Shown in pieces: positions 12,313-56,139 of a stretch of 64,000 bases of DNA. The translations under genes were made by a program, and so were the position numbers. The notes beneath the pieces are model-generated. The model was not told where the DNA came from, made no database searches, and saw only the letters and a list, made by a program, of their open reading frames with translations. Position 1 is the first letter of the stretch. The number at the start of each line of letters is the position of its first letter. Source of the stretch: an uncultured Acidobacteriota bacterium (GTDB lineage: Bacteria > Acidobacteriota > Polarisedimenticolia > J045). The stretch covers positions 187,594 through 251,593 of the forward strand of contig CAVPDB010000006.1 of the NCBI GenBank assembly GCA_963702545.1, in the 5' to 3' direction.

Positions 12313-13498
12313 ATGCGGATGGACAGGATCCTCGTACTGCTCGCCGCCATGGCCGCCACGGGAGCCGCGCTCGCCGGGAACGGCCCGGTCCTGCGCAGCG
12401 CCCAGCCGGTCGCGGGGAGCTACATCGTGGTGCTCGAGCCGCTCGGCGCTGAAGGGCACGTTCGGCAGCGCGGCCCTGCTGCCCACCGTGGACCAGCTCG
12501 CGCGCGAGCTGGCCTTCGCCTATGGCGGAACGGTCGGCTTCGTCTACCACGCCGCACTCGACGGCTTCTCGATCAACCTGAACGCCGAGGCCGCGGAGCG
12601 GCTGGCGCGCGACGAGCGGGTGCGGTACGTCGAGGAGGACGGGATCTTCACCGCGGACGCGACGCAGCCCAACCCGACCTGGGGCCTGGATCGCGATCGA
12701 CCAGCGCGCGCTGCCGCCGAGCGGCGACTACACCTACTCCGTGAACGGCACCGGCGTCCACGCCTACATCCTGGACACCGGAATCCGCTCCACCCACGTC
12801 GACTTCGGCGGCCGCGTGCGCGCGGGCTACAGCTCGATCAACGACGGCCGCGGCACCAGCGACTGCAACGGCCACGGCACGCACACCGCGGGCACCGTCG
12901 GCAGCAAGCCTTACGGCGCGGCGAAGAAGGTCAACCTGTACCCGGTCCGCGTGCTGAACTGCTTCGGCTCGGGAACGACCTCGGGCGTGATCGCGGGCGT
13001 CGACTGGGTGACCTCCAACCACCGCAAGCCGGCGGTCGCCAACATGAGCCTGGGGGGCAGCGCCTCGACCTCGCTCGACGACGCGGTGACGCGCTCGATC
13101 GCGGCCGGCGTGACTTACGCCATCGCGGCCGGGCAACAGCAGCGCCGACGCCTGCTTCACCTCGCCGGCGCGCGTCCCGACCGCGTTGACGGTCGGCGCC
13201 ACGAACTCGGGCGACAGCCGCGCCGGGTTCTCCAACTACGGTGGCTGCCTCGACCTGTTCGCCCCGGGCGAGGGGGTCAAGTCGACCTACTACAGCTCCG
13301 ACACCGCCACGCAGCACGATGAGCGGCACCTCGATGGCCGCGCCGCACGTCGCGGGCGTGGCCGCGCTCTACCTGCAGCACAATCCCGGCGCGACGCCGG
13401 CCCAGGTCGCGGCGGCGCTGACCGGGAACGCGACGGCGGGCACGGTGGCGGACGCGGGCTCGGGATCGCCGGACCTGCTGCTGTTCACGGACTACTAG
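12313..13498 (+). CDS. Secreted S8 subtilase, aqualysin/proteinase K-like, with I9 propeptide (about 4 frameshifts)
   Basis: Signal peptide [39 protein letters not shown] (Asp), [10 protein letters not shown] (His), [26 protein letters not shown] (Ser), split across frames near 12445, 12695, 13132 and 13315. Confidence 0.88.
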
Positions 13499-13599: not shown

Positions 13600-16066
13600 G
13601 CTCCTCAGCCGATTGCTCTGCTCGGCCGGACGGCACCTGGCTGGCCTGCCGCAATCCGGCGCACTGCGGGATAAGTACTTGCACATGGCGCGATGGATCT
13701 GTCCGCGGCACGCCTCGCACGGGCGTCATCCTCGGGTGAGGCCTAGCTTCATCAGGCAACTGTACGCGCCCGGTGGAAGCACCGATCCCTGTAATAGGCT
13801 CCCTCCCACAGCCCTGGGCGGCTAGCGAGTGCTCGGGCACACTTCAGCGGTCTCCGAGGGACTCCAGACGCAGCTATCGACCCAGGGTCCGGCCGTCCCG
13901 GTGCAGCTCGTCGATTCCCGCCTTCGGGCAGCACATGTCCAGGGTGGCCTGCCAGGGGATCGGCGGCGCCAGCTTGATCGTGGCCGTGTCGAGTCCCAGG
14001 TCCTTGCACGTCTCGTAGTCGGACGTCGCGATCGGCGGGGAGACATCGCTCCGTCTCGTCTGGGCGTTGGCATCGGTCTCCAGACGTTCCGGTCGGCGTG
14101 GAACGACGCCTCGCGGTCGTCCCGTGACCGCGACGTACTCGTCGTAGAGGCCGAACAGGTGGCCGAACTCGTGCTCCAGCAGGGCCGCGGCCCAGGGGCC
14201 CGCCAGCGAATAGCCGTCCTCCCCGGGCCGGGCGAGGATCCGATCACCGTCAGGCCGACCCCGCCGAGAGGGCGTCTTCCAGCCCCCCTCCCACGAGGTC
14301 GCTGCAGGTTCGCGACGACGACCACGGCCTTGATGTTGGGCGCGCAGAATTGCAGTTCCAGCACGTCTGGCTCGATCTGTCGGCGTCGAGCCAGATGAGG
14401 TTGCAGTTCCCGGGCTCCTCCTGGCTTCCGGAGTGCCAGCAGCGCCGCGCCACCAGGTCGACCGTCCGGCGTGTGCTCCGAGTCCTCCTTGGGTGGAGCA
14501 GCGGTGTCCCAGCGCGACCGATCCGTCGGTTTCGGCTGCGGCGAGCGGCGGTCTCGGTGGCGAGCGGCGTCTGCTGGTGCATCTGTCGGAGCACGTCGAC
14601 ATCCACATCGTTCTGCTCACGAGGTCCATCCGGTAGACGTTGATCCAACCGCGGTAGGGTGCGAACGACTCGCGCTCGAGGACTTGCGAGGCCAGTTCCT
14701 GAACGACCTCCGGAACGCGGGCAGCTCGCTCTCCTCGAACCCGGCCCCGAGGAAGAGGATGTTGTACGTGTCTCACGGGTCCTGGCCTCCGCCGAGCCTG
14801 GTAGACGGTCGGGCAGAGACGGCTGCTGGGCTGCGCCGGCGGCCAGGACGAGCAGCGCTAGCGGCCAGTCCCGCCCGGGCGCTCATGGAGATCACCGCTC
14901 GGCCGAGCCGCGGCAACTGCCAGGGCCGCAGCTTCTGCTCCAGCGTCGTACGACCAGCGAACCTGCAGTCACCTTGCCGTCACGGGTATCGAACACCGCG
15001 ACGTAGTCGTCCCGACGAAGGGGATCCGCCCGGCGAAGACCACCGCATCGGGCTTCTGCGAGGACGGCGCTCAGCTCCCCGTCCACGGCGCCTCTCCCCG
15101 AGCACCGCGCTCGCGCTCCCAGACGAGCCAGGTAGCGCGGTTGATCGTCTCCCGGTGAAGGTGCCCACGTAGTAGCCGGGCTCCCGCAGCGCGTCCGAGG
15201 GATGCTCGGGCCGATCCGCCGCCGGGTGGCAGGACGCCGTCTGGAACGGGCCGAAGCCTGGCGGATCCGGGTCCGCACTCCTCGGGTCCGACATAGACCA
15301 GCCCGAGGACGGGCACGTCCCCGTCCAGCGGGGCGTAGTCCTCGATGGAGCGCGGTCTCGATCGTCAGCGCCAGCTTGGCGTTGGCGAAGCGTCTCGCCT
15401 CGAGATCTTGGGGCAGTGCTCGTCAGCGGATACCGTCGCCAGGAGCAACAGCGCAAAGCACGAACGGCCGCACATGGTCGCTACGTCCGCCACCAGGACC
15501 CGGAACTTGACTTCCGAGCAGTCGACGTTCGCTCCCGTCCTCATCGTCACGGCCGAAAGCTCGAGGAACTGCTGCCGGGACGCTTCCCGGGACGTCGGGC
15601 TGGAGGGCCGGAGCGCGATCGTGCGGGGCGGGTGTCGCCTGCTTCTCTTCCAGCGTCCACCAGAGCGTCTTCTGTGTCGTCTTCTCGATCACCAGACGGT
15701 AGACCTACCGTTCTCGTCGGTGATGCTGACGCTGTCGACCGGGCTCCAGTTTCCCGTCGTCCTGTTCTTGCATTCCAGGTAGTTCACGGATTGGCCGATG
15801 AAGTCGTCGCGCAGCAGGCCGGCCGTGGGCGGACCCGCCGTCTGTGCGATCCCGTTCACCTCGAAGGAGATGCCCGCCCCTCCGCTGCCGCCCTTGATCA
15901 CGACGATCGGCCCCGGAGCCGGGTTCGGGGGTCCGGATCAGGGCAGGGCGGGCGTTCCGGCGTCGCGGGCGTCGTCGTCGGCACGGGTTGCGTCTTCTCG
16001 CCCGCCAGTCCCGCGCGTGATGGTCACCAACAACAGAATCTGCACGAGCACGACTGCGAGCTTCAT
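13600..16066 (-). pseudogene. Heavily frameshifted gene for a secreted M64-family (IgA peptidase-like) metalloprotease; 3' end approximate
   Basis: ATG 16066 with RBS and signal-like MKLAVVLVQILLLVT. Colinear fragments in changing frames: YNILFLG / GFEESELPAF, ESFAPYRGWINVYRMD, HEFGHLFGLYDEY, GLWEGAYY, YSCLMK, PCEACRGQI. Confidence 0.65.
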
Positions 16067-19000
16067 GGACCCCTCCCCTGGTTTTCGGCAGCGGCCGAAC
16101 CGCCCCCCAGCGCGGCCCGCATCCGCTGCAGATCGACTCGCGCGGCGACGCGCTCCCGACTCTCGGGCGGCGCCCCCGCCTCGTATGCGTCGAGCGCGGC
16201 CAGGCCTCGTTGGCGCCAGACCGCGCGTTCCGACTCGTTCCCTGCCCCCTCGGCCACCAGCACCGCCGCAGCGCGCGCCGTGGCCAGTCGCAGCTCCATC
16301 CGCTCCGCCTCGGTGAACGATTCCCGGGCCGCGGCCGCTGCGGCGGCGTGGTCCCCCAGAGCCGCCAGGACCTCGGCCCGCAGCGCGACGGTGTCGACTC
16401 GATCCGGTCGCGGGGCCCCTTTCAGGGCGAGCGCGGCATCGCAGGCCTGGCGGGCCTCACCCTTGCGCCCCCGCCGCAGCGCGGCCTCCGCTTCCAGCTC
16501 CAGCGCCAGGATGCGCAGCGTGGCCACGCTTCCGCCCGGCATCGACTGCACCCGGCGGGCCGCGCGTCGGGCATCGTCCCACCGGCCGGCGTAGGCGGAC
16601 GCGATTCCGCGCGCCAGCTCGACTCGCGCCTCGAGGTCGGCCAGCCCGCGCGCCTTGCGCGCCGCGCGGTGAGCCGCGTCGATCTCGTCCTGCGCCTCGC
16701 CGTCGCGGCCCAGCGCGGCCAGGAGCTGCGCGCGGCGCAGGCTCGCGTAGGCGACATAGGCGGGCAGCGCGCGCGCCTCGAACACCGCCGCGGCGCGCGT
16801 GGCGCTGTCGAGGGCGTCGGCGAGTCGTCCCTGCCGCTCGAAGATCTCGGCCAGCCCGGCCCAGCCCCACCCGGCGGCCTGCGAGGCCTTCTCCGGCGGC
16901 GCATCGCCCGTCACCTCGCGGTAGAGCTGGATGGCGGCCTCGATCTCTCCCGCCTGATAGCGGAGATCGGCCAGCATCGCCGCACTCGTCACCGCCATGT
17001 CGGGCCGATCCAGCTTGCGCGCCAGGTCGAGCGCCTCCGCCAGCATCGGTTCGGCATCGGCCGTGCGCCCGGTGTACTGGAACAGGCTGCCGAGGTTGAC
17101 GAGCGGATCGAGCATCAGCGGCTCGTCTTGCAGTTGCCGCGCCAGGTCGAGCGACTCGCGCATCAGCCGCTCCGCCTGGCCGAAGTCGCTCTGCAGGTAG
17201 GCCTGCACGCCGCGGCGCAGCAGCACCTCGTTCAGCAAGGCCAGGTGGCCGGTCTCACGCGCCGTCGCCTCGGCCTTCTGCAGCGCGCGGTCGGCCTCGC
17301 GCGGCCGGCCCAGCCGCAGCTCGTTGGCCGCAAACTCCATCTCCGCGCGGGTCGCGCCGACCGTGCGCCCGGCCCGCTCGAACTGATCCGCGGCCGACGC
17401 GAAGGCCGGCCCGGCCGCGCCGAAGTTGGCCGACATCACGGCCACCTGACCCCGCGTGAAGGTCGTCGCGGCCAGCCCCTCGGCGCTGTCGAGCTGCCCG
17501 TAGAGCCGCTCTGCCGCGTCCAGCTCGGCGGCCGCGCGGAGAGGCTGATCGGCGAGGATCAGCGTCTCGGCCCGCGCCAGGTGCAGCGAGGGATCGGCCG
17601 GCTCGCGCTCGATCGCGCGCTGCAGCGTGGCGAGACTCTCCGGGAGCCGTCCGGCGTCGGCCAGCGCTCCGGCGTGCAGGCGCAGCAGGCCCGCTTCGTC
17701 GGGGAAGCGCTCGACCAGCGTGGCCGTCGCGTCGACGGCCACGCTGGTGCGGCCGAAGGTCCGGGCCCAGATCGCCTTCAGCGTCAGCGCCTGCCGCTCG
17801 CCCTCGGGCGTGTCGGCGCGGGGCGCCAGGTCCAGCGCCCGGGTGGCCGCGTCGCGCGCCTTGGCGCCGTAGCCCGCCTCGTCGAAGGCCTCGGCGAGCC
17901 GCCCGTAGGCCATCGCGAAACCGGCATCCGCCTGGACCGCCGCCTCGAGCCGCGCGATCGCCTCGTTGAGCTTGCCGTCGCGCATCGCCGCCTGGCCTCG
18001 CTCGAACAGCAGCCGGGCCTCTTCCGAGTCGGAGGTCAGGCCGGCCAGATCGACCCGGTCGTCGCGCCAGGCGGTCAGGCGGCCGACGCCGGGGAGCATC
18101 GCCCGGAGCTGAGACGAGAGCCGCTCCGCCAGCTCCAGCGCATCGCCCGCTTCGGCGCGCACCGGCGCCAACTCCGCCCGGCCCTGTGCCGGCACGGGCT
18201 CGAGCGTCGCGACGTAGCGGGCTCCGTCGCGATAGAGCGTGCCCGTGACCAGATAGTCGAGGCCGAGGGTCTGGGCGAAGAGCCGCGCCGAGGCGGGGTC
18301 GAGCCGGATGCGCGACTTGCCGAGAGTGTCCGCGAGTTGGGCCGGCCCGCGCACCCGCGCCAGCCGCGAGGCCGAGAGGTCGGTCGAGATCAGGTCTGCG
18401 ACCATCGTCGCCCGCACCGCTCCGTCGGGCTCTCCGGTGCGGTCCTCCAGGGCCGCGACCGCGATCGCGACCCGCGGCTCGTCCCATCGTGGCGGCGAGC
18501 GCAGCCACTGCCAGCCGGCGGCCGCCCCCGCCAGCGTCGGCACGGTGACGATCGCGAGCACCAGGGCGAGGCGACGGCGGCGTAACGCATCCGCGGCGCC
18601 GCGCGCCCGGGTCCACTCGCCGCGCTGGACCCGCCGCAGGTCCTCCGCCAGTTCCTCCGCGCTGGCGTAGCGCTCCTCGGGGCGCTTTCGCAGCCCGCGC
18701 TCCAGGACCGCGCGCAGACCGGGCGTACTGTCGAATGTGCGCGACGCTTCCCGCTCGGCGGGCGGCTCCGAGAGAATCGCGCTGATCGTCTCGGCCTGCG
18801 TCTCGCGGCGGAACGGGTGCACACCTGTCGTCAGCTCGAAACCGACGACGGCGAGCGAGAACAGGTCGCTGGCGGGCCCGAGTTCCTGGGCTCGCAATTG
18901 CTCGGGAGACATGTACGCAATCGTTCCGACGACCGCGCCGTGATGCGTCAGCGATTCGTCCGCAGTGACGGCGGTCGAGTCCGGCACGGGGGAAACGGAG

Positions 19001-23816: not shown

Positions 23817-25702
23817 ATGCGCCTTGCGACGGTCGTCGCGTGCCTCGCCGCATCCTGCGCGCCGGATGCGTTTGCTCAGTGCGTCGACACCGACGGCGAC
23901 GGCTACGGGAATCCCGCCTCCGCCGCCTGCCCGTTCGCGTTTCTCGACTGCAACGACGGCTGGGCGTCGACCTACCCCGGGGCCCCCGAGCCGTGCGACG
24001 GCTTCGACAACGACTGCAACGGGCTGATCGACGACGATCCCGTTTGCGACCGCACCTGCGACCCGCCGGAAGCGGTCGGCGGGGACCGGCTTCTCAGCAG
24101 CGGCGGCGGGATCGGCGCCGGGAGCCGGCCGCGGACCGCGTGGAACGGCGGCGGCTTCGCCACCGCCTGGTCCGACGCACGCGGTGGACGCGACGCCATC
24201 TTCGTCGCCTTCGCGGACGAGTCCGGCTCGCGCCTCGGGGGCGAGATCGCGGTGTCGGCCAGCGCGGGCTGGGCCAAGGACCCCGCGATCGCCTGGACCG
24301 GATCGGGCTACGGCGTCGCCTGGGCCGACTCGCGCGACGGCGCGCTCGAGATCTACTTCACGCTGCTCGATCTCACCGGGGCCAAGCTCTTTCCGGAGGT
24401 CGCGCTCACCGCCGGCGAGGAGATCTCGGGCTGGCCCGACCTCGCGTGGAACGGGCGGAACTTCGGGATCGTCTGGACCGGCGAGTCGAGCGGCCTCTCC
24501 TTCGCGGCCGTCGACCGCGCCGGCGGGCGGACGGGCCCGGTGACGAGCGTCGCGACGCATACCGCGTGGCCCAACCGGGCCGCGATCGCCTGGACCGGCG
24601 AGGAGTTCGCGGTGGCCTGGAGCGGAGTCGACGGCGGTCGCGGACAGGTGTTCCTGCAGCGCCTCTCCGCGGCGGGAGACCTGCTCGGGGGGCCCGCCCC
24701 CGTGACCGCAAACCCGACGGCGTCCGAGGCCTCGAACCCCCGGCTGACCTGGTCGGGAGTGGCTTCGCCGTCGCCTGGCACGACCGGCGGCTGGGCAGCC
24801 ACCGCGCCTTCCTCGCGCGGCTCGACCCCTCGGGCGCGAAGCTCGGCGCGGACCAGCCGCTCTCGGACACCGTCTCGCTCAACCCGGACCTGGCGTGGAC
24901 CGGGCAGGAGTTCGGCGTCGCGTGGAGCGAACCGCGGGACGGGATCGCGCGGAAGATCGTCTTCACGACGGTCGACACGGGCGGCGTTCCCGTCGTCCCC
25001 GCCGTCCGCGTCTCCTCAGGCACCCTCCCGTTCGACTACCCCAGCCTGGCCTGGACCGGCGTCCGCTACGGGATCGCGTCGCGCGAGCAGGCCGGGGCGT
25101 GGCGCGTCGTGACGAATCTCGTCGACTGCAACTGCCTCGACGGCGACGGCGACCTCGCGTCCTCGTGCACCGATTGCAACGACGGCGAGGCGACGGTCTA
25201 CCCGGGCGCGGCCGAGGCGTGCAACGGCCGCGACGACGACTGCAACGCGCTGGTGGACGACCTCGCTGGGGTGGTGGACGGAGATCTCGACGGCGTCGCG
25301 GGGGCCTGCGACAACTGCCCCGCGGTGCGCAACGAGCCGCAGTCGGACGGGGACGCCGACGGAGAGGGCGACGCCTGCGACCTCGACGACGCCGTCACGC
25401 TCTTCGAACGGATCGAGCGGCCGCGCGTCGCCTGGCAGAACGACGCGGGCTACCCGTCGTACAACCTCTACCGCGGCTCGCTCGCCGCGCTGTTCGCGAC
25501 CGGCGAGTACACGCAGGAGCCGGGCTCCAACCCCTACGCCGGCCGCTTCTGCGGGCTGGCCGTTCCCTGGCAGGACGACGGCCTCGAGCCCGCGGCCGGC
25601 GAGGCCTTCTACTGGCTGGCGGCCGGGGTCGGCGCGGGAGGCGAGGAGCCGCTGGGGAGCGGATCGGGGGTGACGCGGGCCAATCCCCACCCCTGCCCGT
25701 AG
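23817..25702 (+). CDS. Secreted protein with MopE-like metal-binding motifs, propeller-like AWTG repeats, a thrombospondin-3-like repeat and a C-terminal CP module (frameshift near 24755)
   Basis: Signal peptide, DTDGDGYG...DCND...YPGAPEPCDGFDNDCNG, seven repeats like AWTGSGYGVAW, DLDGVAGACDNCPAVRNEPQSDGDADGEGDACD; ends RANPHPCP. Confidence 0.8.
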
Positions 25703-25715
25703 CGCACAGCGCCGC

Positions 25716-27437
25716 TCAGCGCGCCGGGCGGGAACCGACCCCCAGCGCCTGCAGCGCCGTCGAGACGGCGACGACCACCCCGCACCCCACCACGTTGTAC
25801 CAGAGGAACCCCAGGTCGGAGGCGAGGAAGAGTGCGATCACCGTGGCCTGCGCGACCAGCGCGGCGACCAGGACCGGCGTCGCCGTGATGCGCTTGAGGA
25901 AGAAGGCCACGACGAACAGCCCCAGTATCGTGCCGTAGAAGATCGAGCCCAGGATGTTGACCGCCTGGATCAGGTTGTCGAGCAGCGAGGCGAAGGTCGC
26001 GAAGCCGACCGCGACCAGGCCCCACAGCACGGTGAACAGCTTCGAAACCAGCAGATCGGCGCGGCGGCGTCGCGGTCCGCGCCGCGAGCGGCCCGAGGCG
26101 CTTCCAGAGGTCGATCATGCTGGTGCTGCCCAGCGCGGCCAGCTCGCTCGAGATCGAGCTCATCGCGGCGCAGAGGATCACCGCGATCAGCAGCCCGACG
26201 AGGCCGCTGGGGCAGGTAGCGCAGCACGAACGAGATGAAGACGAAGTCGGCGTCCTTGGTCTCGGTCCCCGGGAGCGGCCTTCGCGACCAGCGCTTCGGC
26301 CTCCGTCCCGCAGCTCCTCGGTCGCGCGCGGCGGCCGCGCGCAGGGCCGCCTTCGCCGGCTGCCTCGCCGCGCTCCGCGTCGAGCGCCGCGACGTAGGCC
26401 TCGCGCCGCCCCGCGCTGCGCCGCGAAGGCGCCGTCGTAGCGCCGGTCCAGCGCCGCCAGCTCGGCGGCGTGCGGCGCCCGCGGCGACGCGCTCGAGAGC
26501 CGGCGCGTTGAAGAAGACCGGCGGCTGGCGTGAACAGGTAGAAGACGAAGACCATGCACGCCGACGAACAGGATGCCGAACTGCATCGGCACCTTGAACA
26601 TCCCGTTGAAGAGCAGCCCCAGGCGGCTCTCGGTGACCGAGCGGCCGGCCAGGTAGCGCTGGACCTGGGACTGATCGGTCCCGAAGTAGGCGAGCGCCAG
26701 GAAGAACCCGCCGGTGATCCCCGACCAGAAGTTGTAGCGGCTCTCGAGAGTCGAGATCGAAGCTCACGGCGTTCATCCGGTCGAGCGCGCCGGCGAGCTT
26801 GAGCGCGTGCGGCAGCGAGACCGGCGTCGGGCAGGCTGAACAGACGATCACCACTCCGGCGATCGCCATCCCCGGCCAGCATGACGATCATCTGCTGCTT
26901 CTGGGTCTGGCTGACCGCGCGGGTGCCGCCGAAGACGGTGTAGGCGATGACGAACAGCCCCGATGCCGAGGTTGGTGGCGTGCAGCGGCCAGCCCAGGAT
27001 CGTGCTGAGGATGATCGACGGGGCGTAGATCGTGATCCCGGCCGCGAGCCCGCGCTGGATCAGGAACAGGACCGCCCCCAGGTAGCGGACCCGGCGCGTC
27101 GAAGCGGTGCTCGAGGTACTCGTAGGCGGTGTAGACCTTGAGCCGGTGGTAGATCGGCACGAAGACCGCGGCGATCACGATCATCGCCAGCGGCAGGCCG
27201 AAGTAGAACTGCACGAAGCGCATCCCGTCCTCGTACGCCTGGCCGGGGGTCGACAGGAAGGTGATCGCGCTGGCCTGGGTGGCCATGATGCTCAGAGCCC
27301 GATCGTCGGCCAGGCCAGCGTGTTGCCGCCGCGCAGGTAGCCGTCGACGTCCTTGACGTCGCGCGACTTCCACGCGCCGTAGATCGCCGATGAAGCAGCA
27401 GCGTGCCGGCCAGGACGACCCAGTCGAGCGCGGTCAC
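25716..27437 (-). CDS. Sodium:solute symporter (SSS) family transporter (multiple frameshifts)
   Basis: [95 protein letters not shown], in successive frames. Confidence 0.88.
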
Positions 27438-27591
27438 GCCGCCCACCCGGCAGGAGCGCGAAGAGCCGCGACCAGCAGCGCCAGCTCCGCCAGCAGCAGC
27501 AGGTAGACGTTGCGCCAGCTGCCGAGCAGCGGGGGCGGCTCGTCCCCGGCGCCGGGCCGGGCCGAGGCTCGCGCGGCTCGGAGGCCCCCAC
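27434..27591 (-). CDS. Small membrane protein upstream of the symporter (frameshifted)
   Basis: DEPPPLLGSWRNVYLLLLAELALLV: one hydrophobic helix; its stop overlaps the symporter GTG. Confidence 0.55.
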
Positions 27592-27594
27592 CGC

Positions 27595-30108
27595 TCAGCC
27601 CCTGGCGAGCAGGTTGGCGAACAGCCGGTAGGCGCCCGGAACGCCGGCCGGGAGCTGCCGGAAGAAGGCGAGGCCGGTGTAGACGAAGCGCCCCTTCCCG
27701 TGGCGGGCGACGAGCGTGCTCCCCTTCAGCGGCTCCTCGCCCGGGTCGGCGATCGCGAACAGCGGCGTGTAGCGCTCGATCCCACGTTCGCCGCGAAGTA
27801 GATCCCGCGCTCCTGGACCCAGCCCGCGAAGTCGGCCTCGCCGAGCTCGTTCGGGGCGCGCAGCGCCGGGTGGTCCGGGGCCAGCAGCGCGATCGCCGCC
27901 GTCTCGTCGGTGACCCGGTCACGGCCGATCTCGAACGGGTAGGGCCCGATCGCGACTCCATCGGGGCGAGCCGGTTGTTCGTGCTGTACTGCGCCACCAG
28001 CGTCCCGCCCTGCTCGACGAAGTCCATCAGCCGCGGGTGCGCCGCGCGCAGCCAGGCGCGCGTGTTGTAGGCGCGGATCCCGACGACGATCGCCGCGAAG
28101 CGCGCAGAGGTCGCCGCGCGCGGACCGTCTCCTCGTCGAGCGCGACGACCGCAGCCCCGACGTGACGCCAGGTCCTCGGCGACCGAGTCGCCGGAGCCGG
28201 GGATGTAGCCGATCGCGCCGGGCGGCAGCTGGATCGCGAGCGGCGCCAGCCGCAGCGTCGCCGGCTGCAGCACGAGCTGCACCGGGATGTGCGGGTAGTC
28301 GATCGTCGACTCGGCGAACGACCAGCGGCGGCCGTCGGCGGCCAGCACCGGCGTGACCTCGATCGGTGCGGCGCCGGCCGGCGCGGTGACCGTGAACGCG
28401 ACCGTCGCCTCGTCGCCGGCCTTCGCGAGCTTGACCGGCTGCGCCGCCGGCTCGGCCTTCCAGCCGGCCGGGAGCGGCAGCGCGACCTCGGCCTCCAGCG
28501 CGTCGCGCCCGGCGCGCACGCGCACCGCAACCGCCGCCGGGCGGCCATTGACCAGCATCGTCGCCTCGCGCGTCGGCGTGACCGTCGCCGGCGGCACGAT
28601 CACGAACGGCCGCAGGCGCTCCCCCAGCACGGGGTCGGCCGCGGCGTGCTCGACCGGAACGGCGATCGCCAGCTCGCGCTCGCCGAAGCGGAAGCGCGTC
28701 GTGACCGCCAGCGGCGGCGGGCCGAGCGGCTCCCCCGCCAGCCGCGGATCGGTCACCGCCTGCCGCCCGCGCGTGCCGGGCGCGGCCAGCCAGTACGGGA
28801 CCGAAACCGGCGCGTCGGCCGGCAGCCGGATCGCCTGCGGGAAGGTCCGGCTGCTCGCCGGCGGCGAGCGCGGCGCCCGGCTCGAGCGGCGGCACCCAGG
28901 GAAACTCGATCCGCTGCAGCACGACCGCCGCGGGCCGGCGCAGCGCGACCTCCAGCGTCGAGCTTGACCTCGCTCCCGGGCGCAGCCGTCGGCGCGGGGG
29001 CGGTGGCCCGCACGAACAGGCCGGCCGCCGACGCGACCAGGTGCTCCAGCGCCGCCCGCGCGTCGCGCACCCGGACGCCGCCGCGGGCAGCGCGTCGAGC
29101 GCGCGGTGCGCGTCGAGCAGCGCCGGGATCGCGCGCTCCGGCGCGTCGCGCTCGAGCGTCGCACGGGCCCGGTCGAGCGCGGCGATCAGTGGCGCGGCGG
29201 GCGGGCCGAAGCGGTTCCAGGTCAGGTCGAGCCCGCCCAGGACGTCGTCGCCGGGCGGCTTCGACCCGGCGAGCGGGACGAAGTACTCGAGGACCTCGCC
29301 GCGCTGCCCCGGCACGCCGAACCCCTGGCTGCGGTGCTGGCTGCGCGAGAGCGCGGCCAGCTCGCCGTATCCCAGGCCCAGCCGCGGGTCGTAGGCGCCG
29401 ACGTTCAGCTTGAGCGCGCCTTCCGGCGGCGGATCGCCGCGCCACGAGCCCCAGGTTGCGGAACAGGCGCTCGGCCTGCCACGGCGTCACGCCGTCCTGC
29501 AGTTGCTCGGGGAAGCGCGCCGGGTCGGCCGCGGCGGCGAACGCCTCGCGTGCCAGGATCGCCGACGCGGTGTGGTGGCCGTGGTTGGGCGGGTTCTCGT
29601 CGAAGCGGGTGACGATCACGTCGGGCCGGAAGGTGCGGATCACCCAGACCACGTCGGCCAGCGCCTCGTCGTGGTCCCACCACGACAGCGTCTCGGCCGC
29701 CGACTTGGAGTAGCCGAAGTCGCGCATCCGCGTGAAGCGCTGCTGCGCGCCGTCGATGCGCCGTGCAGCCAGCAGCTCCTCGGTGCGGATCACGTCGAGC
29801 AGGTCCCCCTGCTCGGCACCGATCAGGTTCTGCCCGCCGCCGCCGCGGGTCATCGACAGGTAGGCGGCGGCGAGGTGCCGGCCATTCGCGAGATAGGTCA
29901 GAAGGCGCGTGTTCTCGTCGTCGGGGTGGGCCGCGACGTAGAGTACGCGGCCCGTACTGGCCAGGCGGTCCAGCTCGTGCGCGAGGTGTCCGGCGTGCAT
30001 GAGGGGCTCCGCGGCGGCGGCGGGAAGGGCTGCGGCGAGCAGGAGGATCGCAGCGGCGACGAGGAAGCGGGCCGCGCCTGCGGTCAGGCTCGAATGCGGG
30101 CTCGTCAT
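27595..30108 (-). CDS. Secreted long-form PIG-L/LmbE family deacetylase (multiple frameshifts)
   Basis: Signal peptide (FLVAAAILLLAAALPAAAA), VLYVAAHPDDEN, TRGGGGQNLIG, RTEELLAARRIDG, DFGYSKS, HGHHTAS, RSQHRSQGFG, IDYPHIP, VGIRAYN, WVQERGIYF, FFRQLPAGVPGAYRLFANLL. ATGA overlap with bshA. Confidence 0.88.
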
Positions 30109-31295
30109 CGGGCCTCCCGTGACCGGCGGTGCTCGAGCACGCGCCGGAAGAAGGCCTCGTACCGATCGAAGGCGGCCGGCTCCGCGAAGTGCGCGACGGC
30201 GTGGGCGCGCGCCGCCCGCCCCATCGCGGCGCGGCGCGCCGGATCGCCGAGCACTTCGATCAGCGCGCGGGCCAGGCGTTCGGGATCGTGCGGTTCGACC
30301 AGACAGCCGGTCGCACCGTCGACGATCACCTCGGGGATCCCGCCGACGCGGAAGGCGAAGACCGGCACGCCGGCGCTCTGCGCCTCGAGCGCGGCGACGC
30401 CGAAGCTCTCGGTCTCGCTCGGCAGGACGAAGGCGTCGGCGTGCTGGAGGTACTCGATGAACTCCGCGCGGCGGCCCAGGAACGCCACCGCGTCGCTGAC
30501 CCCCAGCGCGTCGGCGCGCTCGACCGCGGCGCCGCGGGTCGGGCCGTCGCCGACCAGCACCAGCCGCGCCGGCCGTTCGCGCCGCACGTGGGCCAGCACC
30601 TCCATCAGCTCCGGGACCCGCTTCACCTCGCGGAAGTTGCTGACGTGGAACAGGTAGGCCGTGCCGGGCGCTCCCGGCCCCGCGAACAGCGCGGCAAGGC
30701 GCGCGCGGATCGGGCGCCGGCGCCGGCGCGTAGTGCTCGGTGTCGACGAAGTTGGGCAGCACGTCGATCGGCTGCGATTCGGGGATCCCGAGGCAGCGCC
30801 GCGCCTCGCGCCGGAGGAAGTCGGAGGGGACCGTGATCCCGTCGGCGGCGGCCACGGCGTGGGCCGTGACCGGCCGGTAGGCCGGGTCGGAGCCGACGCG
30901 CGTCACGTCGGTGCCGTGCAGCGAGGCAACCAGCGCGGGCGCCCGCGCGCCGCCGGCCTCGAGCACCTGGCGCGCCAGCAGCGCGCTGGTCGCGTGCGGC
31001 ACGGCGTAGTGCACCTGCACCAGGTCGAGCCCGTGGGTCCGCGCGATCTCGACGATCGTCGAGGCCACGGCCAGCGTGTAGGGCGCGTGCTCGAACACCG
31101 GGTAGGGCGGGACGCGGACCTCGTGGAAGGTCTCGCCGGCGCAGGGGGGCAGCTCGCGGCTGGGGCGCGACGATGGCGATCAGGTGGATCCGGTGGCCGC
31201 GCCGGGCCATGCCCAGCGCCAGCTCGGAGGCCACGACGCCGCTCCCGCCGAGGCTCGGGAAGCAGACGATGCCGATCGAGAGCGGCGAGCGTCAT
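30105..31295 (-). CDS. bshA: N-acetyl-alpha-D-glucosaminyl L-malate synthase BshA (frameshifted)
   Basis: IGIVCFPSLGGSGVVASELA, YPVFEHAPYTLA, HYAVPHATSA, LHGTDVTRVG, HVSNFREVKR, LPSETESFGVAALEA; adjacent to bshB1 and bshC. Confidence 0.9.
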
Positions 31296-32057
31296 CGGCG
31301 GGACTCGAAGGCGTGGGCGCCCGCGAACGGGTTGTCGCGGAAGTGGCGCACCGGGTCGGCCAGCCCCGGCGTCGCGACCGCGCGCAGCGGCTCGCCGTGA
31401 GCGACGCCGATCAGGCTGCCGTAGTAGCGGTCGCGGGCCTCGATCGCCGCCAGCGCGCCGGACGAGCCGATCAGTGTCGGCGCGCCGCCGGCCGGGGGCG
31501 CGACCTGCGAGGCGTGGCAGACGATCGCCGCCGCCTTGCGGGCCGCAGCGGCCGAGGTGTCGACGACGAAGCTCGGCGTCATCCGGTGGCGCAGCGCGTA
31601 GTGCAGGACCTGGCGCGGGACGAAGGGCGCCGCGGCGCCCGCGCCGTCCGGATAGCGCGCCAGGCCGGCCAGGAAGGTCGCCTTGAGCAGCAGCGCTGCG
31701 GCCGCCTCGTGGTCGGGATGCCGGTCCTCGATCCAGGGGATCAGCACGATCTCGGGACGGATCCGGCGCAGCGCCTGCACGACGGCGGCCACCTGCTCCG
31801 GTACCGCCGGGTCCAGGCCCGCGTCGGGCAGGCCCAGGTTTTCGCGCCGCTTCAGGCCCATCACCTCGGCCGCCGCCGCGGCCTCGCGCGCCCGCTGCTC
31901 CGGTGTGCCGTGCGTCGCCCGCTCGCCGCGGGTCAGGTCGAGGACGCCGGTCGAGTGCCCCAGCTCAGCCGCGCGGATCAGCGATTCCGCCGCAGAACAG
32001 CTCGACGTCGTCGGGGTGCGGGCCGACCGCCAGCAGGTCGAGGCCGAAGTCGCTCAT
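31292..32057 (-). CDS. bshB1: Bacillithiol biosynthesis deacetylase BshB1 (frameshift near 31985)
   Basis: LDLLAVGPHPDDVELFCGG, DLTRGE, RENLGLPD, DRHPDH, CHASQ, RDRYYGSLIGVAHGEP; ATGA overlaps at both ends. Confidence 0.88.
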
Positions 32058-33577
32058 CGGAGGTCCTTCAGGGTGGAATCGAACGGGTCGATCGCGTCCA
32101 GCACGCGGGACACGAACGCGTGATCGCCCCAGCGGGAGGCGAAGGTGGCAAGGCCGAAGACGCGCTCCTGCGGCGCGCCGCCGGGGTGCAGCATCCGCTG
32201 CACGCGGCGCAGTTCCTCGACGCGGGTGGCATCGCGGTGCAGCAGCGCCGCGCGGTACTTTGCCGCCAGCTTCTCGACCGACCCGCGCACGCTGGCGGCG
32301 GTCTTCTCGAGCGCGGTGTCGAGACCGGGGCCGGCGGCCAGGAGCCGCGGCGCCAGCGCGCCCAGCGCCGCGGCGAACGGCCCGGTCAGCGCCACCTCGA
32401 CCTCGGCCGCCTCGCGCGCCCCGTCGGCGCCGCCGGCCAGCCGCGCCAGCAACTCGGCCTCCGGCCGCTCCGCGTCGGCCGGGGCCAGCCCCAGCCGGTC
32501 GAGCAGCGCCCCGGTCTTCTCATCCACGACGCGGAATCGCGCCCGCGGCACCACCCGCGGCATCGTCATGCCGAACGCCGCGTAGAGCGGCGGGAGCTGC
32601 TCGAAGTAGGCGACCTCGGCCGGGCCGCCGACGTAGGCCGCGGTCGGCAGCAGCGTGTCCTGCACGATCGGCCGCAGCAATGCGCTGCTGCTGAAGGCGA
32701 GCGGGTCGGCCTCCAGCGCGGCCAGCAGCTCGGCAAGCGAGTGCCGCGTGCCGCCGCCGGCGGTCCGGAAGGCGTCGCCATCCGGCTCCAGCCGGTAGCG
32801 CGGCCCGGCCGCGCCGTGTGGATGGAAGAACGACAGCGGCGCTCCCGCCCGGATCGGGATCTGCACGGCGCGCCCCGCCGTCTCCAGCTCCGCCGCCCGC
32901 GCCGCGAGCGCCGCCGCGAGCGGCGCCGCCTCGCGCAGCGCCCGCGCGTGGACCGGTGCGGCCAGCGCGGCGATCGCCGGGTCGCGCGGGTCGAGCAGGA
33001 CCAGCCCCTGCTCCGCGAACAGCTCGGCCAGCACGCCGGCGAACGCTTCGGCCCAGCCCGCGCCGGGCCGGTAGTGCCGCGCCAGGCGCTCGGCGTGGGC
33101 CGCGCCGTGCGGCAGGTGCGCCAGCTCCGCGCGCAGCGCGTCGAGCCGGTCGAGCACCTCGGGCGGAAGCACCGCGTGCGCCACGGAGCGGCGGTCGGCG
33201 GCGTCCGCGGGAAGAGACAGCGTCAGCGGCTCGCCCTGCGGCCGCCCGATCCGGACGCTCGCGATCTCCGGGAGGTCGTGGTCCTCGGTCTGCAGCCAGA
33301 AGACGGGGACCACGGGCCGGCCCGACTCCGCGGCCAGGGCCCGAGCCAGGCGGACCGCGCTGGCCGCCTTGTAAAGCGTGAAGAGCGGCCCGAGAAACAG
33401 CCCGACCTGCTGGCCGGTGACGACCGCCGGCGCGCCATCGGCCAGCGCGGCCAGGTGCGCGTCGCGGGCGGGGCTGGGCGCCCGGCGGGCATTCTGCTGC
33501 CGCCAACTCTTCAGCACCGCGGGCGGAACGGGACGCGCCGCGCGGCCCAGGGCCGCGCGGCGGTCGTCGTGCGTCAC
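32054..33577 (-). CDS. bshC: Bacillithiol biosynthesis cysteine-adding enzyme BshC
   Basis: VVTGQQVGLFLGPLFTLYKA, VPVFWLQTEDHDLPEI, SALLRPIVQDTLLPTAAYVGGPAEVAYF, PQER. Confidence 0.93.
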   Translation of the reverse strand: MTHDDRRAALGRAARPVPPAVLKSWRQQNARRAPSPARDAHLAALADGAPAVVTGQQVGLFLGPLFTLYKAASAVRLARALAAESGRPVVPVFWLQTEDHDLPEIASVRIGRPQGEPLTLSLPADAADRRSVAHAVLPPEVLDRLDALRAELAHLPHGAAHAERLARHYRPGAGWAEAFAGVLAELFAEQGLVLLDPRDPAIAALAAPVHARALREAAPLAAALAARAAELETAGRAVQIPIRAGAPLSFFHPHGAAGPRYRLEPDGDAFRTAGGGTRHSLAELLAALEADPLAFSSSALLRPIVQDTLLPTAAYVGGPAEVAYFEQLPPLYAAFGMTMPRVVPRARFRVVDEKTGALLDRLGLAPADAERPEAELLARLAGGADGAREAAEVEVALTGPFAAALGALAPRLLAAGPGLDTALEKTAASVRGSVEKLAAKYRAALLHRDATRVEELRRVQRMLHPGGAPQERVFGLATFASRWGDHAFVSRVLDAIDPFDSTLKDLR

Positions 33578-33579
33578 GG

Positions 33580-34443
33580 CTACTTCTTCCAGTCGGCGAT
33601 CGCCTTCGCGATGTCTTCCTTGAAGAACTGGTCGTAGATGCTGTTCCCCGGGCCCAGCTTCTGCGACTGCTCGGCGGCGGCGAGCGCCTCGGCCTTCTTC
33701 CCCTGCTTGCCGAGGATGCTGGCCTTGACCCAGTTGTTCCACCAGTTCGGCTCGATCGCGATCGAGGTGTTGATGTAGGAGAGGGCCTGGTTCAGGTCGC
33801 CGCCCGAGTCGAGCAGGTAGCGCGCCGCCTGCCAGTGCGGGCGCCAGGCGTCGCCCAGCGTCTTGTCGATGCTGGCCGCGACCTGGGCCTTGGTGTCGAC
33901 GGTAATCGGGATCCGGACCCGCGTCTTCTCCCACTCCAGGTCGAGGTTCGCGCCGGAGTCGGTGGTGTCGGAGAAGAGGAAGGTCAGGCGCTCGCGCGAG
34001 GTCGCCATCGCCTGCGGCGTGAGCGTGATCCGGGCGACGTCGTTCTTCTCGTCGTAGCCGTTGGTCCCCGACAGGTCGGGCTTGGAGTTGAGGATCACGG
34101 TCCAGCTGGTCTTGCCGGGGATCGTGAAGAGCGAGTAGCTGCCGGCCGGAACCGGCTTGCCGCCCAGGGCGAAGTCGCGGCTGGCGGTCAGCTTGGTCGC
34201 CATGTTGGCGCCGGTGCGCCAGAGCGTATCGAACGGCACCAGCTCGCCCCAGATGACGCGGCCCTTGACCGCGGGGCTCGAGTACTCGATCGAGAAGTCG
34301 GTGATCCCGACCCGCTGCTCGAGCTTGGCCTTGGGGCTGGAGGCCGGGGTCTCCATCGCGCTCTGCGCGAGGGCGGGGGCGGCCGCGAGGCCGGCCAGGA
34401 CGAGGGCGGAACAAACGGCCTTGTAAACGATCGGTCTACGCAT
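33580..34443 (-). CDS. Secreted DUF2911 domain protein with C-terminal TPR
   Basis: Signal peptide (…APALAQ), SPKAKLEQRVG, IEYSSPAVKGRVIWGELVPF..LWRTGAN, GSYSLFTIP, LEWEKTRV, then a helical TPR-like tail. Confidence 0.88.
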   Translation of the reverse strand: MRRPIVYKAVCSALVLAGLAAAPALAQSAMETPASSPKAKLEQRVGITDFSIEYSSPAVKGRVIWGELVPFDTLWRTGANMATKLTASRDFALGGKPVPAGSYSLFTIPGKTSWTVILNSKPDLSGTNGYDEKNDVARITLTPQAMATSRERLTFLFSDTTDSGANLDLEWEKTRVRIPITVDTKAQVAASIDKTLGDAWRPHWQAARYLLDSGGDLNQALSYINTSIAIEPNWWNNWVKASILGKQGKKAEALAAAEQSQKLGPGNSIYDQFFKEDIAKAIADWKK

Positions 34444-34511: not shown

Positions 34512-34539
34512 ATTGTACCGGCCGCGGGGGGACCGGCAA
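34512..34539 (-). promoter_or_regulatory. Candidate sigma-70 promoter of the DUF2911-bsh operon
   Basis: Minus strand TTGCCG-N16-TACAAT, about 70 nt upstream of ATG 34443. Confidence 0.4.
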
Positions 34540-34630: not shown

Positions 34631-37436
34631 CTAGTTTCGCGGCGGCGAGCGCAGCGTCGTCACCACCGTGAACGGCAGCGACGGCGACGCGGTTCCCTCG
34701 CCCGCGAAGAACAACCTGAGGGTCTCGGCGTACGACGAGGACGGGCTGTAGTCGGTCACGTAGAGCGAGACGAGCTGATCCAGGTCGAGCCCGGTCGGCG
34801 CCAGCTCCGGCGGGAGCGTCAGGTTGGTGACGTTCCAGCTGGTGCGGGCCTTGGGGTTCAGCACCACCTGCCAGGTCCGGTCCTTGCCGGGCTGCGCAGG
34901 GTCGTTGTAGACGAACCAGACCCGGCCCACCTTGTTGTTCTTGGCCGGCGGCGGGTCGTCGAGGCCCCAGGTCATGACGCCGCCTGAGTACGAGAACGGG
35001 TCGATCCGCATCAGGCGCGGGATCTGCAGCGTGGCGGCCGGGGCGGTGTTGCTGGTCTCGGTGTAGGTCGAGAAGGCGGTGGGCGCGCCGTTGACCGGGA
35101 AGAAGCTCTGGTTGACCAGCGTGAACCAGTAGTCCTGCGGGAGCTGGTCGAACAGGTAGTACTGCCCGTTTGTCGCCGCCGGGACCAGGTTCTTGGTCCC
35201 GAGGCTGTAAAACTGATTGCCGCGGGTGCCGGCGACCGAGACCACGTCCACCGGGTCGACCGCGTTGAACAGCCGCGAGGCGGCGGTGCGGTTCAGGTTG
35301 ATCGTGTAGCTCGCGCCGTTGGTAAAGGCCTGGTCCAGCAGGAAGCCGTAGCTCGCCGGCCCGACGTCGCTGAAGCTCGAGTTGTCGCCCATCAGCGAGA
35401 TCGTGCCGTTCTCCTGCAGGTCGCTCTGTCTGACCGTGAACTGCTTGGACGTCTGGCCGATCCAGGAGGTCGGGCCGAACTCGAACGGCTGCACCCGGCC
35501 GAACAGTGTCGGCGTCGGGTTCAGCGAGACCGTCACCGTGCCCACGTCCGGGTCGGTCACGCCACAGCCCTCGACGCCGCCCGGCAGCGAGACCACCAGG
35601 GTCCCGACGCCGTCCGGGATGTCGACGAAGCTGAAGATCAGGTCGCCCGAGACGGTCGTGTTGGGCCGGCCGGCGGAGAAGGTCAGCGGCTTCGTCTCCG
35701 AGCTGAGGTCGACCACGCCGCTCGGGACCGGTGGTGAAGGTCTTCTCGACGGTGCCGTCGCTCCGGTCGTGGACGGCCACCAGCGCGCCGGACAAGGGAG
35801 CGCCGCAGTTGTCGACGATCTTGACGCCCAGGGTCGGGTTGCCGCCACCGCCGTCGTCCAGGACGAACGCCGCACCCACCGAGGCGTCGGCGTTGAGCGT
35901 GACGCTGCAGGCGCCGGTTCCGCTGCACGCGCCGCTCCAGCCGGTGAACTTCCAGCCCGACGCGGGGTGGGCGGCAAGGCCGACCTGGGTTCCGTCGTCG
36001 TACTGCGCCGAGCAGGCCGAATTCCCCTGGCCGCAGTTGATCCCGGCCGGCGTGCTGTCGACCCGGCCGCCGGCCGCGCCGGCGCCGGCGCTGACATTGA
36101 CCGAAAGAGTGCGCTTGGGGGTGGACTGCGCGAAGTTCGCGCCGACGCTGGCGTTGGCGTTGAGCGTGATCGCGCAGCTCCCGGTGCCGGTGCAGGCCCC
36201 GCTCCAGCCGGTGAAGTTCCAGCCCGAAGCCGGCGTGGCCGTGAGCGAGATCCCCGTGCCGACGGGCCATGCGTTCGAGCACTGCGTATTGCCCGCGCCG
36301 CACGAGATCCCGGCCGGCGTGCTGGCGACCGAGCCGCCCGCGTCCGGCGTCACGCTGACGCTCAGCGTCGGCTGGGCCGCCTCGCTGAAGTTCGCCCCGA
36401 CCGTCGAGTCCGCGTTGAGCGTGACCACGCAGGCGCCGGTGCCGCTGCAGGCCCCGGTCCAGCCGGCGAAGCTGAAGCCCGCAGCCGGGTTGGGGGTGAG
36501 CGTGATCACGGTGCCGGAGAGGAACGACTCCGAGCAGCGGGTGTTGGCCGCGCCGCACGAGATCCCCATCGGGTCGCTGGTGATCGAACCGCCCTGCTCG
36601 GGCGTGACATTGACCGTCAGCGTGCGGTTGACGGGGATCGCGTTGAAGGTCGCGGTGACGCTGCGCGCCGCGCTCATCGTGACGCTGCAGGTTCCGGTCC
36701 CGGTGCACGCCCCGCTCCAGCCGGCGAAGACCGAGCCCTGGGCGGGCGTGGCAGTCAGGGTGACCACGGTCCCGGCGTCGTAGCTCGCGGTGCAGGTCGC
36801 GCCGCAGTCGATCCCGGCGGGGCTGCTCGTCACGCTGCCGCTGCCGCTGCCGGCGCGCGAGACGGTGAGCGCCTGGTCGGGGACGTCGACCGCGAAGACC
36901 AGCGTGTGCGGCCCGGACACGGTCAGCGTGTAGCTGAAGTTCTTTCCGGCGCGCGCGAGCGAGATCGGCCGGCCGTCGAGCGTCGCCAGGATCGTCCCCC
37001 CGCCGGCCGGCGGCCTGATCGTGAACTTGACCTTCTTGCCCGCGGTGTACGACCCGGCCGTCGGCGAGACCGAGATCCCATCCCGCGCCTCGACCGTCAC
37101 CGGGTAGGTGAAGGCCGCGAAGCTCGCCTTGAGCGAGTGCTTGGCCTGGACGTTCGTGAAGGTGTAGCTGTAGCTCGTCGCCTGCGACGGCACCGGCTGG
37201 TTCGACCGGTCGACCGCGACGGAGGAGATGTAGAACCCGCTGCTCGCGGTGACCTGGAAGGTCTGGTCCGCTCCCGGCTGCACGCTGGCCGAGCGCGGCG
37301 AGACGGTACCGCCCTTACCCGCGGTCGCCTTGATCTTGAACGGCTTGGTGGACTGTGCGAGTGCGCTGCTGCCCGCGGCCAGGAACGCCAGGAGCAGCAC
37401 GAGTGCCACGGTGAGCGTGTGACGGGTCGAGCGCAT
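34631..37436 (-). CDS. Secreted surface protein with InlB B-repeat-like (Flg_new-type) domains (frameshift near 35725)
   Basis: Signal peptide MRSTRHTLTVALVLLLAFLAAGSSALAQ; four Cys-containing repeats of about 85 aa (GSVTSSPAGIDCG...VTLTATP..G..F.GWSGAC.GTG.C) plus divergent N-terminal copies; a beta-rich C-terminal region in the frame ending at 34631. Confidence 0.82.
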
Positions 37437-55275: not shown

Positions 55276-55994
<719 letters not shown>

Positions 55995-56139
55995 GGCATG
56001 TCCTCTCCGGATAGCGGGGGGGGAGGATGGCGCGCGGTCGATCCGGCCGCAAACCCGGACCCATACCAGGAGTAAGCCGCACTCCGGCCGATCGTCCCAA
56101 GGACCCGCAGGGGCCGGCGTCCGTGCCGGCCCGCGCCGC

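Follow-up and report, generated by a model that had tools for sequence, protein, structure and literature searches.

The bacillithiol and mycothiol conjugate amidases, Bca/BshB2 and Mca, are hydrolases of the PIG-L/LmbE family, and Bca cleaves the acyl group from the glucosamine nitrogen of its substrates inside Firmicutes. For glutathione, salvage takes place in the periplasm, where gamma-glutamyltranspeptidase (GGT) works with importers in the gamma-glutamyl cycle of E. coli. Carriers of the SSS family can have small membrane partners, as in the pairs YhdT-PanF and YjcH-ActP and in the association of DUF4212 proteins with VC_2705-type symporters. Here we analyzed a stretch of 64,000 nucleotides (nt) from an uncultured Acidobacteriota bacterium (GenBank assembly GCA_963702545.1, contig CAVPDB010000006.1, positions 187,594 to 251,593), referred to below as the window, in which the bacillithiol biosynthesis genes bshC, bshB1, and bshA are embedded among genes for a DUF2911-TPR protein, a long PIG-L hydrolase, a microprotein, and an SSS symporter. 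These four non-Bsh genes form a conserved exported module, which may be an extracytoplasmic arm of bacillithiol turnover.

According to one account, no other low-molecular-weight thiols are arguably as widespread among bacteria as bacillithiol and its derivatives (PMC6282198). We found nothing in the literature searched on transporters of these thiols, on steps outside the cytoplasm, or on their catabolism, in agreement with an earlier note made from the DNA letters (the sequence-only reading), which knew of no described periplasmic salvage pathway for this thiol. The proposed system would resemble GGT-based glutathione salvage and the glutathione import locus Gis-Ggt of S. aureus, as far as the latter is set out in its source (PMC10355420), in that a thiol cofactor would be cleaved either outside the cytoplasm or once imported, with its parts regained as nutrient or precursor; GGT itself even adjoins the module in 17 Bacteroidota loci. 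It would differ in the thiol concerned, in using a PIG-L rather than an Ntn hydrolase and an SSS rather than an ABC carrier, and in being predicted from its genes.

An operon-like array of seven genes

The window has a G+C content of ∼73%, and as a result its raw lists of open reading frames (ORFs) are crowded with spurious frames. Genes were placed by third-position GC together with Pfam and NCBIfam scans. Seven genes run in one direction on the minus strand, from 34443 to 25716. In the list, GlcNAc stands for N-acetylglucosamine.

34443-33580, minus strand: DUF2911-TPR protein, 287 amino acids, intact (PF11138, 176.9 bits)
33577-32054, minus strand: bshC, 507 amino acids, GTG start, intact (TIGR03998, 396 bits, cutoff 265.8)
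32057-31292, minus strand: bshB1, GlcNAc-malate deacetylase (TIGR04001, 213.7 bits, cutoff 182.5)
31295-30105, minus strand: bshA, GT4 GlcNAc-malate synthase (TIGR03999, top NCBIfam match for both pieces)
30108-27595, minus strand: long PIG-L/LmbE-family hydrolase, exported, ∼830 amino acids (PF02585)
about 27591-27434, minus strand: single-helix membrane microprotein (conserved small ORF)
27437-25716, minus strand: SSS/SLC5 Na+ symporter, ∼570 amino acids (PF00474 pieces in several frames)
34512..34539, minus strand: sigma-70-like promoter match (TTGCCG, 16 nt, TACAAT), ∼70 nt before the DUF2911 start; a consensus match only

All seven could be identified from Pfam, NCBIfam, or homologues, and they stand in the order that the sequence-only reading had given. 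Its claim of tight junctions was also borne out, as each of the six junctions is an overlap or a gap of 2 to 3 nt. The TAG stop of the DUF2911 gene is followed after 2 nt by the GTG of bshC; three ATGA overlaps join bshC to bshB1, bshB1 to bshA, and bshA to the long PIG-L gene; the TGA of the latter is followed after 3 nt by a GTG; and the microprotein stop shares a GTGA overlap with the GTG start of the SSS gene. The promoter-like match was the sole one on both strands between 25400 and 34900, where shuffled sequences averaged 0.1. The stretch thus reads as an operon-like minus-strand array behind one promoter-like site, with no such site inside it.

Among the three Bsh enzymes, BshC passed the equivalog cutoff of TIGR03998 over residues 19 to 501 and also matched PF10079 (E = 7.8e-69) and the coiled-coil domain PF24850. 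The BshB1 score was reached by a 230-amino-acid main piece only, the gene frame being interrupted. The bshA gene lies over three frames, and its pieces scored 143.3 and 172.2 bits with TIGR03999, whose cutoff of 273.7 is meant for one protein; the intact BshA orthologue of locus L024 scored 419.8 bits with the same model.

A conserved exported module across phyla

We scanned species-representative genomes with an alignment of 30 long PIG-L homologues, took the best 80 of at least 599 matches (loci L001 to L080), and read the neighborhoods by ORF clustering and tblastn, anchored on the long PIG-L gene. Sixty loci belonged to Bacteroidota, six to Acidobacteriota, and three to Ignavibacteria, the remainder being from Myxococcota, Binatia, Verrucomicrobiota, and unclassified bacteria; all sampled phyla are diderm. 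In 53 of the 62 loci that had at least 2 kb of downstream sequence, the SSS gene came directly behind the long PIG-L gene in the same orientation. A DUF2911-TPR gene was present within 10 kb in 28 of the 42 loci whose flanks reached 5 kb or more on each side (39/80 overall), convergent behind the SSS gene in 31 loci and upstream on the same strand in 5. Thirteen pairs of top matches to long PIG-L and DUF2911 were located on contigs of equal size. Long PIG-L, microprotein, SSS, and DUF2911-TPR are a conserved exported module of at least six phyla, a unit of their own within which the bsh genes are placed in the window.

Other genes recur beside the module. In 20 Bacteroidota loci (L005, L009, L017, L019, L029, and L048 among them), an exported M14 carboxypeptidase of 838 amino acids with a ThuA-like tail is encoded directly upstream on the same strand; no sequence similarity could be detected between the tails of this protein and of long PIG-L. 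GGT genes lie close to the module in the 17 Bacteroidota loci mentioned above, DUF1572/DinB neighbors were seen in five Chitinophagaceae loci, with a DinB_2 gene right behind the SSS gene in L008, and a sulfurtransferase neighbor was seen in L053. The GGT, DinB-type, and sulfurtransferase neighbors have a thiol flavor. The 24 commonest neighbor families included no glycoside hydrolase, SusC/SusD pair, NagA, MurQ, or AmpG-type gene.

Some neighborhoods held further genes: an S-adenosylmethionine methyltransferase gene upstream of DUF2911 in L001 (2757-3608), cytochrome bd oxidase genes immediately behind the SSS gene in L024 (14276-16670), and genes for MsrB, MOSC, DUF1223, and FMN reductase proteins upstream in L067 (5182-8421).

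The long PIG-L protein

The long PIG-L protein was identical at 754 of 815 aligned residues (92.5%) to its 827-amino-acid homologue P0001, the whole of which was covered, and it exceeded the PF02585 cutoff (56 versus 28.2 bits). In the alignment of 30 homologues the motifs AHPDDE and NHGHH were invariant (H53, P54, D55, and D56; H168, H170, and H171). A signal-like hydrophobic N-terminus was present in 71 of 75 homologues, which upholds the signal peptide assigned by the sequence-only reading. The added regions comprise a beta-sandwich (NEW3-like) and a GATase1/ThuA-like part. The family is large: the N-terminal piece had at least 8,000 homologues of ∼825 amino acids, and an exhaustive search at E ≤ 1e-30 returned 2,178 clusters at 50% identity.

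Like Bca/BshB2 and Mca, this protein has a PIG-L fold with an AHPDD metal motif, and its predicted target, like theirs, is the N-acyl group on a glucosamine thiol scaffold. Whereas Bca and Mca reside in the cytoplasm and are about 220 to 290 amino acids long, long PIG-L is exported, carries ∼600 added residues, and shows HGHH where the second His motif usually stands. Its top NCBIfam match was Mca, far under cutoff, and a sequence search of the PDB returned only weak PIG-L matches (LnmX, 2.9e-5; MshB, 4e-3). By analogy, long PIG-L may work like Mca or BshB2, although it is a member of neither model.

The symporter and its microprotein

Assignment to the SSS family was clear both for a piece from the window (36.4 bits versus a cutoff of 22.8, PF00474) and for the L024 orthologue (232 versus 184). 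The closest solved relatives were SiaT, NIS, SMCT1, and SMVT, with SiaT (PDB 5NV9) the best at E = 3.8e-37; glucose carriers ranked behind these four. A comparison with the residues described for SiaT of Proteus mirabilis, which transports sialic acid together with Na+ (PMC5931594, as far as that source sets them out), showed that the present symporter keeps the Na2 serines (Ser342 and Ser343 of SiaT) and that its clade retains the two hydroxyls of transmembrane helix 1 that bind the sialic acid carboxylate. It differs from SiaT in that Gln82 and Arg135 are unaligned and the Na3 aspartate is replaced by Gln, and its clade has an insertion of ∼100 amino acids and a dedicated microprotein. The clade motif (A/G)TQASA(I/V)TF was found in 52 of 54 SSS ORFs. 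Since SiaT, SMCT1, and SMVT carry carboxylates, we count these relationships as support for import of glucosamine-malate (GlcN-malate) by the symporter.

The microprotein gene lies between the long PIG-L and SSS genes and overlaps the SSS start; with a strict pattern it was found in 28 of 68 loci. Its product consists of the motif PPF.K[ST]W..Y and one hydrophobic helix, and no Pfam or NCBIfam family matched it. As in the YhdT-PanF, YjcH-ActP, and DUF4212 pairs, a gene for a short membrane protein thus stands directly upstream of a symporter gene and overlaps it; the single helix, the motif, and the lack of a Pfam or NCBIfam model set the microprotein apart from YhdT, YjcH, and DUF4212.

Chitinophagaceae-type loci have a second small ORF of ∼50 to 60 amino acids between the PIG-L and microprotein genes, with two hydrophobic stretches, the pattern ..GLLLG.FIKR...GL.IG..LG.., and no Pfam family. 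It occurs in L009, L012, L029, L038, L039, L052, L057, L062, L064, L072, L075, and L077.

The DUF2911-TPR protein

The DUF2911 assignment was secure (PF11138, cutoff 27, E = 2.8e-52). The N-terminus is signal-peptide-like, as the sequence-only reading had noted, and all 36 aligned homologues bear signal peptides ending in AQ. Homologue P0121 aligns along 100% of the protein with 93% identity. The single-sequence TPR_2 score lay under its cutoff (20.1 versus 27), and with a 36-homologue profile the C-terminal ∼85 amino acids matched TPR proteins of the PDB at E = 4.6e-20. Nothing in the PDB sequence searches matched the DUF2911 domain, an Atlas search with homologue P0139 returned only DUF2911 and TPR look-alikes, and in the literature searched DUF2911 was found only in one secretome table.

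Fusion proteins (P0392 to P0403) join DUF2911 to an M19 dipeptidase, to M28 with an alpha/beta hydrolase, to a class C beta-lactamase-like protein with DUF3471, and to DUF6503; DUF2911 is the C-terminal domain of the exported M19, M28/alpha-beta hydrolase, and beta-lactamase-type proteins. These fusions would fit an accessory role for exported amidohydrolases. One candidate, an apparent DUF2911-BshC fusion (P0391), was rejected as a frameshifted, miscalled ORF; it shows only that the two genes are adjacent in another contig.

Association of the module with bsh genes

Within 10 kb of the 80 loci, bshC was found in six, a BshA-like gene in eight, and bshB in one. The bsh block of the positive loci lies between DUF2911 and PIG-L, in either orientation. 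The bsh-positive loci of Myxococcota and Binatia form one clade (SH-like support 99) in a FastTree phylogeny of 32 chosen sequences, in which P0001 took the place of the window and bore the bsh-adjacent label for that reason only. Elsewhere in the tree, L067, a metagenome-assembled genome of Verrucomicrobiae, has a BshA gene (219 + 101 bits) behind the SSS gene. The link between the bsh genes and the module is real but narrow. Bacteroidetes, Ignavibacteriae, and Acidobacteria are themselves predicted to make bacillithiol (PMC6282198, as above).

Plasmid clusters with cytoplasmic homologues

A tblastn search with P0001 detected full-length long PIG-L homologues of 32 to 38% identity in 22 plasmid records, 21 from Alphaproteobacteria and one from Bacillus sp. 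F19; the Aminobacter protein matched P0001 at E = 8e-92 over residues 34 to 824 by blastp. We read the gene content of seven annotated alphaproteobacterial records (L081 and L083 to L088); an eighth, from R. rhizoryzae, came without annotation. Common to all seven were the components of a sugar ABC importer (a UgpC-like ATPase, two permeases, and a binding protein) along with a sugar kinase, an ArgH-family lyase, a ROK regulator, and a long PIG-L protein without signal peptide; a DMT/EamA transporter was present in three. Loktanella adds NagB, Roseinatronobacter a cysteine dioxygenase family protein, and Aminobacter a SufS-like protein plus a Blh-like persulfide dioxygenase. In the Bacillus sp. 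F19 plasmid (L082), a secreted copy of long PIG-L is accompanied by ROK, ABC, creatininase-family, ArgH-like, and NagK-like genes. No homologue of the ArgH-like lyase, ROK, PfkB, binding protein, or cysteine dioxygenase was found in L001 to L080 or in the window.

An amidase, a fumarate-lyase-type enzyme, glucosamine kinase and deaminase, and cysteine catabolism, as annotated, together match the composition of bacillithiol, that is, cysteine-glucosamine-malate; mycothiol would instead call for inositol genes. The plasmid cluster is therefore a candidate for the catabolism of bacillithiol or GlcNAc-malate.

A putative extracytoplasmic arm of bacillithiol turnover

Taken together, these data suggest, at a rough probability of one half, that the module forms an extracytoplasmic arm of bacillithiol turnover. 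Outside the cytoplasm, the long PIG-L protein would strip the acyl group from the glucosamine nitrogen of a bacillithiol-type compound; this group would be cysteine, from bacillithiol, its disulfide, or its S-conjugates, or else acetyl, from GlcNAc-malate. The carboxylate-bearing product, GlcN-malate, would then be imported by the SSS symporter with its microprotein, and cytoplasmic BshC would put cysteine back on it. DUF2911-TPR would be an accessory partner of the exported hydrolase. We infer the salvage idea as a whole from gene context, including what the substrate is, which way it flows, and what DUF2911 does. The sequence-only reading had already proposed such an arm and had asked for a neighborhood analysis. 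Its proposal is partly supported: in its favor are the conserved exported unit, the bsh synteny (a bsh block retained in one clade, and L067), and the content of the plasmid cluster; against it, most loci have no bsh gene nearby.

Several observations weigh against this proposal. The loci of Bacteroidota (60), Acidobacteriota (6), and Ignavibacteria (3) all lacked a bsh gene inside 10 kb, and bsh adjacency amounts to about two evolutionary events. P0001 scored far below the equivalog cutoffs of Mca (TIGR03446, 57.2 versus 277 bits) and BshB2 (TIGR04000, 16.6 versus 195), and the PIG-L domain reached 22 bits with the BshB1 model against a cutoff of 182. In the symporter, the carboxylate-binding Arg135 of SiaT has no aligned counterpart, the Arg of the clade sitting three residues earlier. 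The ArgH-family lyase of the plasmid cluster passes its cutoff marginally (282 to 352 versus 279.5 bits), and the alphaproteobacterial hosts are assumed to be without bsh genes. Finally, the GGT and M14 neighbors and the DUF2911-peptidase fusions fit scavenging of peptides or peptidoglycan equally.

The last of these points leads to the alternative that the module scavenges some other N-acyl compound, such as peptidoglycan-derived or other acetamido-sugar acids, N-acyl amino acids, or peptides, and that the bsh synteny of the one clade is merely inherited. This would agree with the lack of bsh genes around the module at most loci, with the M14 (20 loci) and GGT (17 loci) genes that adjoin it in Bacteroidota, with the fusion of DUF2911 to dipeptidases, aminopeptidases, and beta-lactamase-type peptidases, with the failure of the PIG-L domain to reach the cutoff of any thiol-specific model, and with the acetamido-sugar acid carried by SiaT, the nearest solved symporter. 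We regard it as the main rival, though less likely than the bacillithiol reading. The bsh block has been kept between DUF2911 and PIG-L through inversions, and bshA stands independently beside the module in L067; glycoside hydrolase, SusC/SusD, NagA, MurQ, and AmpG-type genes are absent from the 24 commonest neighbor families; and neither peptidoglycan nor sialic acid explains why the plasmid cluster pairs an ArgH-type lyase with genes for breaking down glucosamine and cysteine.

Interrupted reading frames

The seven genes are as the sequence-only reading described them in identity, order, and junctions, but only two of the seven frames are open, and it did not mention the ∼30 frameshifts in the others. 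As written, bshB1, bshA, and the genes for long PIG-L, the microprotein, and SSS are interrupted. By frameshift-tolerant alignment to homologues we counted about 27 to 31 one- or two-base indels in these five genes (∼26 insertions and ∼4 deletions) and none in DUF2911-TPR or bshC. The bshB1 gene has one +1-nt shift at ∼31979 (against BshB of L003), and its N-terminal piece with the HPDD motif lies in another frame than the remainder. In bshA there are +1-nt shifts at ∼31162 and ∼30717 plus a shift right behind the ATG, such that the first conserved residues are read in a different frame from the ATG at 31295 and the GT4 and GT1 domains are divided among three ORFs. The long PIG-L gene shows about 10 to 11 shift events relative to P0001, the first possibly an alignment artifact. 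In the microprotein gene there is probably one shift near the start, the frame of the conserved part being without a canonical start codon, and the SSS gene has 13 to 16 indels, as mapped with the SSS proteins of L024, L021, and L036 (58 to 62% identity).

Real frameshifts would make bshB1 to SSS recently inactivated pseudogenes, and bacillithiol would no longer be made via this locus. The clustering of the indels in five consecutive genes, their rising density toward the SSS gene, and the intact DUF2911 and bshC genes are what such decay might leave. Bacterial gene decay, however, is deletion-biased, and here insertions are in excess; signs of relaxed selection are also missing, given the 92.5% identity to P0001, a third-position GC of 90 to 100% in every piece, and no lost gene portion. 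Genes elsewhere in the window are broken in the same way, namely an Fe/Mn superoxide dismutase gene (55279-56051, minus strand) and an S8 peptidase gene (12356-13495, plus strand), each split over three frames. For these reasons we consider inactivation improbable and read the ∼30 indels as probably patchy sequence errors.

The indel-rich patches extend beyond the bsh cluster to the superoxide dismutase and S8 peptidase genes and to a gene for a MopE-motif protein (23817-25702, plus strand), which is convergent with and downstream of the SSS gene and has a frame switch near 24700. On the other side, across a 187-nt gap upstream of DUF2911, lies a gene whose large secreted product has repeats of the GWSGACTGTGSC type (34631-37436, minus strand); its frame switches near 35750. 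By the GC-based caller this stretch was given to the opposite strand; that translation, the only one scanned, matched no Pfam family. A 2.8-kb region of the window (13610-16420) showed no clear coding phase by third-position GC.

Implications for bacillithiol biology

That the exported long PIG-L protein deacetylates GlcNAc of an envelope polymer (peptidoglycan or exopolysaccharide), with SSS and DUF2911 as passengers, would suit an exported protein with NEW3-like and GATase1/ThuA-like regions from a family of GlcNAc de-N-acetylases, but is very improbable, since the SSS gene with its overlapping microprotein gene stands behind PIG-L in 53 of 62 loci across phyla and cytoplasmic family members occur in import and catabolism clusters, both of which point to a small soluble substrate.

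A broader reading can be put forward tentatively, at somewhat less than even odds: the long PIG-L family may be the missing hydrolase of bacillithiol turnover and define two undescribed routes. The first would be a periplasmic cycle in diderm bacillithiol producers, made up of the exported amidase, its partner DUF2911-TPR, and, for uptake of GlcN-malate, a Na+-coupled importer that includes the microprotein as a subunit. The second would be a cytoplasmic catabolic pathway in Alphaproteobacteria and some Bacillus. There, alongside the amidase, an ABC system would handle import, an ArgH-type lyase would release fumarate from GlcN-malate, and a glucosamine kinase with NagB and enzymes of cysteine breakdown would complete the route.

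If true, this would give a function to DUF2911, to a very large LmbE/PIG-L family of ∼830 amino acids, to a clade of SSS symporters, and to an unannotated microprotein. It would show how a thiol of the cytoplasm is won back from the periplasm by diderm bacteria, as a counterpart of GGT-based glutathione salvage, and how soil and marine bacteria feed on the bacillithiol of others for carbon, nitrogen, and sulfur.

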